A DNA stretch of 64,000 nucleotides from a virus. Lineage: Duplodnaviria > Caudoviricetes. This document shows positions 6,710 through 26,203 of this stretch, piece after piece (position 1 is the stretch's first letter; every line of letters begins with the position of its first letter). The translations under genes were made by a program, and so were the position numbers. The notes under the pieces are model-generated. The model was not told where the DNA came from. It made no database searches and saw only the letters and a program-made list of their open reading frames with translations. The DNA lies in the IMG/VR virus record IMGVR_UViG_3300044655_001017, one strand, 5' to 3'.

Positions 6710-6763
6710 ACTTTATTAAGTAAAAACATATTATAGCATTTACAGCGGGGTGTGTAAAGAAGT

Positions 6764-7012
6764 TTATATATCACGTACTGGAAGTGCAACATAAAAGGTA
6801 TCTATCATATGTAAATAGTCTTCGTTATCACCTAACGCCCACGGACTAATATCTGGAGCATAGCGTTGCCACTCAATATCTGTCGGCATTCGCCATCCTG
6901 TACTTCCCTCTTGATTATAAAAGAAACAGTACAAAACGGCTTCGTCATATGTCATTGGGTTTTCACTCGGAATACCAAGTTGAATAGTACATGGCGCATT
7001 AACTTCGATCAT
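6764..7012 (-). CDS. WRLPT/DUF1566-like mini protein
   Basis: YDEAVLYC...GWRMPT...LPVRDI. Confidence 0.75.
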   Translation of the reverse strand: MIEVNAPCTIQLGIPSENPMTYDEAVLYCFFYNQEGSTGWRMPTDIEWQRYAPDISPWALGDNEDYLHMIDTFYVALPVRDI

Positions 7013-7039
7013 AATTCCTCCTACGCGTACAGCGGGGCC

Positions 7040-7252
7040 TTAGCAATCTTTCACTAATTTAAGATAGCCGTTTCTTATGTTTGGATTTGACTGTTCTACA
7101 TCTGATTGATCCCAACAAAACTTTAAGCTCTCGTAATGGTCAATGTACTCTTGTTCTGTAGGAAGCCGCCATCCTGGGGTCATAAAGGCAATCATAACGG
7201 CTTCATCAATCGTTACTAGATTTGGAAATTGTTTACCAATCTCAACTGCCAT
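7040..7252 (-). CDS. WRLPT/DUF1566-like mini protein
   Basis: IDEAVM...GWRLPTEQE...LVKDC. Confidence 0.7.
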   Translation of the reverse strand: MAVEIGKQFPNLVTIDEAVMIAFMTPGWRLPTEQEYIDHYESLKFCWDQSDVEQSNPNIRNGYLKLVKDC

Positions 7253-7310
7253 TAATAGATCTCACAGGGATTGTAGTAAACTGATCATCACAAAAACTAA
7301 ATGTTTCATA

Positions 7311-7748
7311 TTAAACCTCATCTTCTTCAGTTTCCCATTCCTCCCACCAATCGTATGTAACGTCGTATCCCTGCTGGCGTAATGCTTTGTAAATGCCAGT
7401 AGGTGGACACCATGCAGTTTCAAACTCTAATACAATCTCGCCATCATCATCTGTGTACAATGGTGCTTGTTCATTTGTAATGGCTTCCCATTTTGTACCC
7501 CAATTTTCTACACGCCATTCATAAGATGTGCTGTAACCATATTGCTTACGATTTTCTGCTTGTTCTTTTTCCATAGCAGCTTGCTTTACTGGGTCAGCAT
7601 AACGACCAGACGGTGTGTTAAGTAATCCTGCCGGACATGGTAGAATAGTGTTGAACAAGTTGCGTTCTTGATATGCAGTATCAAGTAGTGCAAGTTTAGC
7701 TGGATCAGAGTGTCTAATGATGGCTCTGTTGTTTACATAATTTGGCAT
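7311..7748 (-). CDS. DUF1281/YubB-like ferredoxin-fold phage protein
   Basis: MPNYVNN...WRVENWGTKWEA...FETAWCPP motifs. Confidence 0.65.
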   Translation of the reverse strand: MPNYVNNRAIIRHSDPAKLALLDTAYQERNLFNTILPCPAGLLNTPSGRYADPVKQAAMEKEQAENRKQYGYSTSYEWRVENWGTKWEAITNEQAPLYTDDDGEIVLEFETAWCPPTGIYKALRQQGYDVTYDWWEEWETEEDEV

Positions 7749-7815
7749 AGTGCGCTCCGCGTGTGTTTAAGTAAAAAACATATTATAGCAAAGTTGCATT
7801 TGGTTGTAAAGAAGT

Positions 7816-8034
7816 TTATATATCTCGTACCGAAATTATCAACCATGTTTCATCAGGATCGTCTTTTAAGGTATCATCTTGATACCAGCTGCTGGTAAGT
7901 TCATAATATTCATCGTACTCATCCCCTGTTGGCATACGCCATCCCTTCTTGCTATCTTGAGAATAGAAGAAGCAGTACATGACTGCTTCATCATATGACA
8001 TCATTCTGTTGGATTCATAGCCAAGTTCAATCAT
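7816..8034 (-). CDS. WRLPT/DUF1566-like mini protein
   Basis: YDEAVMYC...GWRMPT...SVRDI. Confidence 0.75.
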   Translation of the reverse strand: MIELGYESNRMMSYDEAVMYCFFYSQDSKKGWRMPTGDEYDEYYELTSSWYQDDTLKDDPDETWLIISVRDI

Positions 8035-24288: not shown

Positions 24289-24326
24289 TATTATAGCGCA
24301 AAACTTAGGACTTTACAAATGGTATT

Positions 24327-24551
24327 TTAATCAGCAGTGCGCACTGGACATATTTTATGTGTTACTTTAGCTATCTTAAGACCTTCATCATTCTGATCAA
24401 ACGCATCGCAATCAATTGCTTCGTAATCACAAAATTCTTCTTCAGTTGGTATGCGCCAGTCATACTTGTTATTATATGTTAGTGTAGCACAGTATAGCCA
24501 GGCATCATCAAATGAGAACCGGCCGGCTGGCATTGGGGCAATCTCAAGCAT
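24327..24551 (-). CDS. WRLPT/DUF1566-like mini protein
   Basis: FDDAWLYC...DWRIPT...CPVRT. Confidence 0.8.
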   Translation of the reverse strand: MLEIAPMPAGRFSFDDAWLYCATLTYNNKYDWRIPTEEEFCDYEAIDCDAFDQNDEGLKIAKVTHKICPVRTAD

Positions 24552-24813
24552 CTTTAGTTCTCACTGGTTGTACAACTCTTATTGATAAGAATTTTAAACT
24601 TTTTACCGTTGGTAAGCTGTTTAGATTGCTATCTCTAAAATCATCTTCATCCGAGTCATCATATGCTGATAGTGAAATTCCATCAATATCTTCATATTCG
24701 TCATGGGTTGGAATACGCCAATCGTATTTGTTATCGTGTATACAGGTAGCGCAGTATAGCCATGCTTCGTCGTAATTTAGATATTCATTTAATATAGGTG
24801 CAATCTCAAGCAT
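24544..24813 (-). CDS. WRLPT/DUF1566-like mini protein
   Basis: YDEAWLYC...DWRIPT...QPVRTKDA. Confidence 0.8.
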   Translation of the reverse strand: MLEIAPILNEYLNYDEAWLYCATCIHDNKYDWRIPTHDEYEDIDGISLSAYDDSDEDDFRDSNLNSLPTVKSLKFLSIRVVQPVRTKDA

Positions 24814-25024
24814 CTTTAGTTCTCACTGGTTGTACACGCCAATGGCTAGGACGTGGTTCGTCTGATTGATCAAAGGATTCTTCATCAATTTCGTCGTTGT
24901 ATGTAAACTCGTAATCAGTTGGAATACGCCAATCATATTTGTTATTATGAGTTAGAGTAGCACAGTACAACCAAGCGTCGTCATATGACATCTTATAATC
25001 AGATAGTGGTGCTAGTTCAATCAT
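24806..25024 (-). CDS. WRLPT/DUF1566-like mini protein
   Basis: YDDAWLYC...DWRIPT...QPVRTKDA. Confidence 0.8.
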   Translation of the reverse strand: MIELAPLSDYKMSYDDAWLYCATLTHNNKYDWRIPTDYEFTYNDEIDEESFDQSDEPRPSHWRVQPVRTKDA

Positions 25025-25029
25025 AATTT

Positions 25030-25510
25030 CTCCTATTAGGTATAAAGGACTAAAGTCCTAAATTATAATAATTTTATATTCGTTGGCACTCATATCAATT
25101 ATTATAATTTTATTTTCTTTCTTTGAATATTTTGTTAGATTTAGAAGTCATATTGGCCCGCAAAGGCCAATGGAACATTTGTTGAGTTTCTTCATGTCTT
25201 AGCATTAGAGCATTACAGAGGCGGTCATCCGGTACCTCGAGCTCCGTCCTGGTTTTTATATGACGGCGGACTAATTATACAATGCTAACCATATAATCAG
25301 TCGTAAGGGTGTTACCCTTTCTTTTAACCTTATGTGTACAGCGGGGCCATAACCTGTAATGAGTTTTGTAAAGGTACATCTCATGTTCATCCAAATGGGT
25401 AGGTGGTTATGTCGTTGCTACAGTTCAACAATTCCATCACTGTGATACATCTGTCCAGTTATAGGGCGCATAGATAATACAGTTTGCGCGACACCTGCTG
25501 TAGTTATGCG
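25030..25510 (-). ncRNA. candidate structured non-coding RNA or origin region
   Basis: No ORF of 60 aa or more; TTGACA-17-TATAGT promoter at 25542-25514; several hairpins. Confidence 0.4.
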
Positions 25511-25568
25511 TACACTATACAGTATATGCACACGTATGTCAAGTGTTATTATGTTACAGCGGGGCCTT

Positions 25569-26203
25569 TTAGTACGATGCAGCTGTACTAACAGGAAGTA
25601 ACAACCATTCTTCTAAGTTACCTGTATAGTTATCGCCAGTAAAGATTTCCATCTCGCAACGAAACTCGTCATGTTTAAAAGCATAAACAGTAATGCTAGA
25701 ATCGATTGATATTATCCGCATGTACAACATACATCCAGTTTCTACTATTCTTCTGTCAGTATAAATGGTTTCCATGGTATTACTCCGGTTGATAAATTAT
25801 TTAGTGTATGTGTTACAGCGGGGCCTATTTGCATATAACGTGTTATGCGTATAGTATATAAGTGTATATGTGTGTTGTCAATGTGTATGAGCGTATTACA
25901 TGTATATGTAATTATACTCGTGTGGAAATGTGTGTAATGCAGAGTTTACAGCGGGGCCTTTTATGGTTTAGGCTTCTTAACAAACCTGCCACCTGCACCA
26001 CGTGCATTTGGCATCATAACAACTTTGGTATTAGCATTAGCAATATCAACACCATTGTTGAAACTTTGATGAGTAGCTCTGTTAGTAGTAGCACGATTGG
26101 GATACTTTTTACCCCATGACCATCCTGCGCGATGTCCGCTACAGTCTTTAGTGCATTGCGAGCCGTGAAAGGTTAGTTCGTTTAAAAGTTCTTCTATTTT
26201 CAT
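25569..26203 (-). other. two hypothetical genes (25569-25775; 25961-26203, late, MKIEELLNE)
   Basis: First behind TTGACA-17-TATACT (25881-25853); second behind ATAAATA (26215-26209). Confidence 0.65.

Follow-up and report, generated by a model that had tools for sequence, protein, structure and literature searches.

What does a very large phage write between its early genes, and what reads it? The question is raised by a 64,000-nucleotide stretch of tailed-phage DNA (IMG/VR virus record IMGVR_UViG_3300044655_001017; Duplodnaviria, Caudoviricetes), called the window in what follows, in whose left half a short GC-rich word recurs on a single strand. All coordinates are window positions, and "the word" stands for the unit A-GGCCCCGCTG(T/C)-A. 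The word is a real, strand-polarised and selected signal; its sequence and placement indicate that it most likely serves as transcription-polar punctuation of an early gene block, transcribed by the host RNA polymerase, in freshwater T4-like jumbo phages of ~350-370 kb.

The word in the window

The window contains eight exact copies of GGCCCCGCTGT (Table 1), every one on the minus strand, where dinucleotide-preserving shuffles lead one to expect 0.01. A preliminary description of this DNA had reported the eight copies, their common strand and their absence from the right half, and had proposed a count against a shuffled background as a check; the count bears it out on each point, with zero exact copies in the right half. 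Allowing up to two mismatches brings in only three more window matches, which is the chance level. The near-copy GGCCCTGCTGT at 16076 has an exact counterpart at the corresponding place in each of two relatives (records G001 and G007) and is therefore counted as a ninth window site; another near-copy, CACCCCGCTGT at 6742, lies inside a promoter spacer, as had already been noticed. The crowding of four copies into about 620 bp, also pointed out before, comes to 621 bp (25338-25958) at irregular spacing (133, 259 and 218 nucleotides [nt]).

When the copies are aligned, only a flanking A on each side is common to them beyond the 11 conserved positions; the unit is therefore the 13-letter one defined above, and it is without a hairpin partner. 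Conservation outside the word does not exceed 0.11 bit in the aligned copies, and no pairing partner is kept. Across 105 contexts (placement statistics, here and below, refer to deduplicated lineage contexts, 84 or 105 in number) position 11 is T in 84, C in 20 and A in one: a pyrimidine in 104 of 105.

Conservation along the lineage

A 14-mer scan of IMG/VR returned 108 loci. Some 20 IMG/VR loci belong to relatives of 36-45% GC and carry several copies each, on one strand and between unrelated flanks; in nine distinct records (G001 and G002 are the same contig and count as one), 50 of 50 exact copies keep to a single strand per record. The complete relative G007 (372,173 bp) has 11 exact and seven one-mismatch copies, all on the forward strand and all within one forward-coded early block of ~76 kb (from 350 kb, across the origin, up to 55 kb); the other forward-coded blocks of this genome contain zero copies, and its reverse-coded blocks contain zero reversed ones. 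Each end of the early block has clusters of copies; its convergent end lies next to an intrinsic terminator.

At sites that are positional orthologues between window and G007, the word shows no mismatch or a single one, while the 50-nt flanks are only ~45-60% identical, so that the conservation in relatives that had been suggested as a second check is found. The order promoter, word, Shine-Dalgarno sequence (SD) and ATG is kept at 25815, for example, between flanks that are only ~51-58% identical, and the site at 16076, followed after 6 nt by the SD of the gene that begins at 16058, is exact and has the same layout in G001 (L058:6636) and G007 (361335). Since the word is kept while its flanks diverge, it is under strong purifying selection; it is also confined to the early region and points along transcription. 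At two sites the surroundings differ on one side: the G007 orthologue of the 7029 copy is exact, with a downstream flank that is 90% identical and a different upstream gene, and the counterpart of 21139 is a one-mismatch copy that stands before homologous downstream DNA but behind a different gene.

A metagenome scan gave mostly unrelated single matches, together with ~10 further multicopy fragments of the lineage. Many of the single IMG/VR matches were set aside as a coding coincidence (reverse strand, LTAGPNG) in homologues of a 96-amino-acid gene at 58158-58448 (+); this gene, which lies beside nrdB, is conserved and has no Pfam match, and its homologues inflate naive counts of the motif. 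Among bacterial genomes, each of the 120 stretches among the matches listed holds a single copy, except for a repeat element in one metagenome-assembled genome. On the available evidence the word does not appear to be host-derived. In the exceptional assembly, from Anaerolineales, the 14-mer lies ~80 nt from three contig ends (L131, L132 and L188) in a repeated element with a terminator-like hairpin, probably the end of an unrelated insertion sequence. None of the papers that could be searched contains the word in connection with a phage; it is, apparently, undescribed so far.

Placement relative to genes and promoters

The word keeps company with stop codons. In 24 of 84 contexts it starts -1 to +7 nt past the stop of an open reading frame (ORF) of at least 50 codons, with peaks at TAG-G, TAA-GG and TAAAA-GG, and it tracks the upstream stop more tightly than the downstream start. 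Five window copies had been described as overlapping a stop codon or starting within 2 nt of one; their offsets are 0, -1, +2, +2 and +2, the last three (21139, 25556 and 25948) sharing the stop context TAAAA followed by GG. The copy at 18250, described as the last codons of a gene, encodes G-P-A-V-T and is followed by a TGA that overlaps the next ATG. The two copies said to be untranslated are so: the one at 25338 follows a small RNA and the one at 25815 lies in a leader. A layout in which the word is followed after 6-8 nt by an SD and then an ATG recurs at 7029, at 16076 and at three G007 sites.

It also keeps company with promoters, in two ways. Downstream, a promoter scoring at least 10 of 12 is found within 50 nt in 23 of 105 contexts, compared with a control rate of 4.7%; the spacings 13 and 24 nt occur repeatedly, and the distance to the next consensus promoter varies from 7 to 50 nt. 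(In the window, the earlier statement that several copies sit upstream of promoters holds for 25556, 21139 and 25948.) Upstream, in six of 105 contexts the word starts 23-28 nt past a -10 element, that is, at about +16 to +32 of a leader, and this leader layout is common to the window and G007. Both arrangements meet in a minus-strand region at L008:8280 and its orthologue L035:3687, where two perfect or near-perfect TTGACA-N17-TATAAT promoters surround one copy, one ending 23-26 nt upstream and the other starting 13 nt downstream of it; the short leader holds CCCCGGGG, which could potentially pair with the motif.

Copies come in tandem pairs 20, 23, 27, 43, 48, 49 or 51 nt apart, with no helical phasing; the commonest spacing within clusters is ~190-260 nt. 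The stretches between copies are mostly ORF-poor, and about one third of them fold well below shuffled sequence.

A probable signal for the elongating polymerase

Which polymerase meets the word? Promoters of the early block are of the sigma70 type. Profiles PF00940, PF00562, PF00623 and Sigma70_r2 (PF04542) find no match in the complete relative G007 (for PF00940 this is a weak test, its positive control having matched zero genomes), and the NusG NGN domain (PF02357) has no match in G007 or in four other records, with a control that matched 11 of 14 genomes. Because the promoters are consensus sigma70-type and no phage polymerase, sigma or NusG gene was found in G007, it should be the host polymerase that meets the word. 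Co-orientation with transcription, confinement to untranslated gaps and a length like that of a transcription bubble therefore point to a signal encountered by the elongating host enzyme.

The reading that we judge best is that of a co-transcriptional pause or factor-loading signal resembling the operon polarity suppressor (ops) element. That the word belongs to this general class is reasonably probable; the specific mechanism is put forward tentatively. The word would be read, as non-template DNA or as nascent RNA, by way of the elongating host polymerase: its flanks (GG at positions 1-2, TG-pyrimidine at positions 9-11) would make the polymerase slow down or pause when the 3' end of the transcript is at position 11; within the ~12-nt bubble the invariant CCCCGC centre would lie exposed, to be recognised by a putative phage or host factor; and this factor would alter the next action of the polymerase, in the direction of read-through or of conditional stopping. 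Loading would take place at leader copies, and copies between genes would serve for reloading or as attenuators. The predicted outcome is control over when, and in what relative amounts, early genes and small RNAs (sRNAs) are expressed.

This proposal draws on what is known of pausing. The extended bacterial pause consensus is G-11 G-10 T-3 G-2 Y-1 G+1 (PMC6062546). If the word is aligned so that its position 11 corresponds to the RNA 3' end, five of the six positions agree, and the common variant of the word, in which T11 is replaced by C, retains the pyrimidine. In ops, likewise, pausing is due to the flanks and RfaH recognises the variable centre in the non-template strand, and the authors of that work predict the same principle for unrelated proteins (PMC5995543). 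The tandem copies, being unphased, are unlike a site for cooperative binding to duplex DNA. The preliminary description had listed an RNA processing or antitermination signal among its possibilities; both are compatible with all the findings. A more novel version is on the unlikely side: the host polymerase would pause on the word, which would be the recruitment site of a new, non-NusG elongation regulator, a phage factor that reads CCCCGC on the non-template strand or the nascent RNA and makes the polymerase resistant, or prone, to termination. Jumbo phages would then have invented an ops-like system independently.

Several observations tell against an ops-like signal. The match to the pause consensus was noticed after the fact, and it is incomplete: position 12 (+1) is mostly A (72 of 105 contexts) and G in just 10, and in ops a change at G12 abolishes the U11 pause (PMC5995543). 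No NGN-domain gene that might encode a reader was found in the phage (G007 and the four other records). About one fifth of the copies (the 23 of 105) stand just upstream of a promoter, where loading would serve only polymerases reading through from upstream; this layout would also suit an insulator, a terminator or a duplex operator. One G007 copy, at 23105, is apparently inside an ORF. Finally, the predicted RNA accessibility at the word, 0.395, only slightly exceeds the 0.357 of shuffled flanks.

Other readings of the word

Might the word act as RNA instead? If GGCCCCGCUGY were bound or cut by a sequence-specific RNA-binding protein or endoribonuclease, of the phage or of the host but redirected by the phage, the site would separate cistrons, trim 5' leaders, define the 3' ends of sRNAs or repress translation of the next gene; the RNase III sites between early T7 genes and the control of early T4 mRNAs by RegB and RegA provide the analogies. 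Such a site fits all the placements (cistron junctions, leaders, the place behind a terminator-less sRNA, the place before promoters), and it is consistent with the strict orientation along transcription, the location of nearly all copies outside ORFs, the recurrent approach to SD and ATG, and inter-copy units that are mostly ORF-poor and, in one third of cases, well folded. It is the nature of the site that makes difficulties. We know of no natural protein endoribonuclease that reads an unstructured site of 11-13 nt, and so long a recognition site without structure lacks precedent; the excess in accessibility is marginal. A trans-acting antisense or guide RNA as the reader was rejected: neither the window nor the complete G007 contains a complement of the word, even with G-U pairs allowed. 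Mimicry of, or complementarity to, rRNA fared no better, nothing notable emerging against E. coli 16S, 23S and 5S. An RNA-level site is possible, on the unlikely side.

A site in duplex DNA is a further candidate: an early or virion protein of the phage would bind the asymmetric 13-bp site as a monomer and repress or activate the neighbouring early promoters, or else act as a polar roadblock to elongation in early shut-off. Asymmetric protein sites of 13-20 bp are common in nature. The enrichment of promoters within 50 nt downstream, with its repeated spacings of 13 and 24 nt, is what an operator would give; some copies lie at ~+21 of a leader, a classic operator position; and partial copies occur in promoter spacers, at 6742 in the window and twice in G007, where they read TACCCCGCTGT. 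Yet the spacing to the promoter varies over 7-50 nt, the copies at 7029, 8979 and 18250 sit in operon junctions with no promoter nearby, the tandems show no helical phasing, the absolute orientation in each record is nothing that a simple operator needs, and degenerate copies, which most operators have, are almost lacking. An operator is thus unlikely. The earlier suggestion of a protein-binding site (activator or iteron) keeps some likelihood, weakened by variable promoter spacing, unphased tandems and some operon copies far from promoters. The iteron part may be compared directly: replication-origin iterons are regularly spaced direct repeats beside an AT-rich unwinding element and an initiator gene, and here four copies within 621 bp are irregularly spaced and the others are spread over ~76 kb at gene ends.

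Could the word serve DNA transactions, with no role in expression? It might be a homology linker, like Chi or like the promoter-early stem-loops (PeSLs) of T4-type phages (PMC2839356, PMC4122927), a nick site of the T5 type, or a dense target or a boundary of a 7-deazaguanine modification. At 7029 and 21139 homology with G007 does break at the word, the downstream side being kept and the upstream gene differing, and the restriction of all copies to one strand recalls T5-type nicks. Recent history is another matter: the window and G001, relatives that are 96% identical, are separated by ~8 recent indel junctions, of which none falls at the word. A recombination hotspot in recent history is thus not supported, although the two older homology breaks coincide with the word. 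Nor would one expect a linker to be letter-perfect across lineages, or nick and Chi sites to shun ORFs and adjoin stop codons; this placement argues against T5-type nick sites in particular. Chi is a short word of 5-8 nt, specified by the host and over-represented and skewed in the host genome. The word has 11-13 nt and occurs in single copies in the 120 bacterial stretches among the matches listed, and the suggestion of a Chi-like signal for cassette shuffling is not supported. A link with runs purged of GA, GG, TC and CC was rejected, such runs being no longer beside the word than at random positions. As a class, sites of this kind are very improbable.

Least probable of all is a stand-alone promoter for phage-specific (middle-gene) transcription that would begin at the word or immediately past it, modelled on the compact promoters of phage single-subunit polymerases: a compact, exact, strand-specific element co-oriented with the genes, often 2-40 nt upstream of start codons and at several sites 6-8 nt before an SD, would suit it, but searches of G007 detected neither a phage RNA polymerase nor a sigma factor, no -10-like element keeps a constant distance from the word (outside it, conservation stays within 0.11 bit), two copies are only 2-3 nt from the next ATG, tandems 20-27 nt apart would be odd for promoters, and the tie to the upstream stop is closer than that to the downstream start.

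A number of known elements can be dismissed briefly. 1) The copies have neither a GC-rich hairpin nor a T run, so they are not intrinsic terminators, and no inverted repeat surrounds them of the sort that makes an integron attC (imperfect inverted repeats, 57-141 bp, through which the bottom strand folds); the preliminary description had been right to set both aside. 2) A plain terminator is also out: the genes at 7012 and 8976 have no room for promoters of their own, so that transcription must pass the word to reach them, and the order promoter, word, SD, ATG is kept between the window and G007. 3) An element like the initiation of mutagenic homing (IMH) site of a diversity-generating retroelement, at the ends of DUF1566 lectin genes, was rejected: the upstream sequences are unrelated, and the gene at 17144-17437, which bears a signature like that of a variable repeat (VR), has no copy. 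4) For a LexA half-site or a MotA-type -30 box there is no partner element at a fixed distance. 5) For a start-site tag, the positions 4-6 nt upstream show no excess of -10-like hexamers. 6) Presentation in a hairpin loop, in one orthologue group, was judged by eye and was not convincing.

The early block, its promoters and its small RNAs

The window has no near match among deposited phages. Its genes include those for a ribonucleotide reductase, a tail fibre and virion proteins, as well as tRNAs, and its left half consists of some 85 small early genes, DUF1566 mini-lectins in many cases, that form a block on the minus strand. A fourth tRNA, at 3202-3273 (-), is found by Rfam (47.4 bits) and is not in the ARAGORN output.

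The sigma70-type promoters of the early block are of two kinds. One is the consensus TTGACA-N17-TATAnT; the other, here called class B, is a family with a conserved extended -10 and leader: TTTACA, 14 nt, TTGC, TATAAT, then a leader ATnTTTTTACTTAAACAAC ... GGAG. Several of the indel junctions that distinguish the window from G001 are at or near class B promoters, which for this reason may be the PeSL-like recombination points of this phage.

The small RNA behind which the 25338 copy stands (25350-25494) matches the orphan Rfam family Polynucleobacter-1, has a consensus promoter of its own (25542-25514), is followed by no intrinsic terminator and is conserved in G007; the match and its setting suggest that this family is, at least here, an early phage sRNA. 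The rest of the ORF-free stretch, 25030-25337 (-), past the 25338 copy, has one TATAAT and GC-rich paired segments and no Rfam match; it may harbour a second non-coding RNA.

Table 1. Copies of the word and associated features of the early block (window coordinates)
Feature	Position	Strand	Context
Partial copy CACCCCGCTGT	6742..6752	-	in the spacer of promoter TTTACA-N17-TATAAT, 6758-6730
Exact copy	7029..7039	-	TAA, word (offset 0), 6 nt, AGGAGG, ATG of gene 7012-6764; between two cistrons
Exact copy	8979..8989	-	first G completes the TAG stop of gene 9198-8989 (offset -1); ATG of gene 8976-8437 2 nt on
One-mismatch copy GGCCCTGCTGT	16076..16086	-	5' leader; 28 nt past the -10 of promoter 16143-16115
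Exact copy	18250..18260	-	end of 45-amino-acid DUF1566-remnant ORF 18380-18243; ATG of gene 18246-18028 3 nt after
Exact copy	21139..21149	-	2 nt past the stop of 359-amino-acid gene 22231-21152; 24 nt before the -35 of promoter 21114-21086
Exact copy	25338..25348	-	untranslated; starts 2 nt after the last aligned base of the Polynucleobacter-1 RNA; identical in G007
Exact copy	25556..25566	-	2 nt past the stop of 68-amino-acid gene 25775-25569; 13 nt before the TTGACA of promoter 25542-25514
Exact copy	25815..25825	-	untranslated leader of the 68-amino-acid gene, whose ATG is 39 nt on; 27 nt past the -10 of promoter 25881-25853
Exact copy	25948..25958	-	2 nt past the stop of 80-amino-acid gene 26203-25961; 9 nt before promoter-like site 25938-25911
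Polynucleobacter-1 RNA	25350..25494	-	Rfam RF01718, 59.6 bits, full-length model; promoter 25542-25514; a copy of the word on each side
Class B promoters (and similar)	6730-6758, 7782-7810, 10247-10275, 11046-11074, 11774-11802, 16115-16143	-	

Comparison with known systems

Uncultured freshwater jumbo phages have no described regulatory code, and the word, sharply delimited and easy to synthesise, gives access to the way in which a phage of ~370 kb guides the host polymerase across its first genes and its sRNAs. Closest among described elements are ops, the PeSLs and the sites at which early T7 and T4 transcripts are processed, and the word lacks defining features of each.

PeSLs share with the word the character of short, conserved punctuation between the small genes of T4-like hyperplastic early regions, often directly upstream of a sigma70-type early promoter. 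The word differs in having no stem-loop and in being followed by a promoter within 50 nt in only ~22% of cases; the word is not where close relatives show recent indels, and the class B promoter-leader looks closer to a PeSL here.

Among early T7 genes the RNase III sites are double-stranded hairpins, and the RegB nuclease of T4 cuts GGAG and needs ribosomal protein S1. Like the word, these are leader and junction signals on early polycistronic transcripts of the host polymerase; unlike them, the word is an unstructured site of 11-13 nt, at which cleavage is only hypothetical. If the word were a processing site, it would indicate an unusually specific endoribonuclease. With either a processing or an ops-like role, it marks early transcription units and candidate sRNA genes, that of the Polynucleobacter-1 RNA included, in related metagenomic phage contigs.

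The nut/boxA and Q-utilisation sites of lambda load processive antiterminators on the host polymerase, and they too are promoter-proximal and post-cistron signals. The 3' half of the word, GCTGTAACA, is even faintly like boxA, GCTCTTTAACA. There is, however, no boxB-like hairpin at the word, the AACA tail is not kept in relatives, and copies are many per genome rather than one or two.

Ops and RfaH come closest in manner. The differences are of sequence and of setting: GGCCCCGCTGY in place of GGCGGTAGnnTG, with no match to the ops core GGCGGTAG; a +1 that is mostly A here and a pause-critical G in ops; no NusG-family gene found in the phage; and many copies at the ends of units, just before promoters. 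Pausing and binding at the word, moreover, are predictions from its sequence. Both elements are ~12 nt long, hairpin-less, GC-rich and strictly strand-specific, residing in the non-template strand; both occupy leaders and gene junctions of long, horizontally acquired operons; and in both, flanks like those of the consensus pause (GG at -11/-10, G-pyrimidine at -2/-1) surround a specific centre. If the word is indeed an ops-like pause and loading site, it would lend weight to the proposal (PMC5995543) of the consensus pause as a general platform on which unrelated regulators dock.

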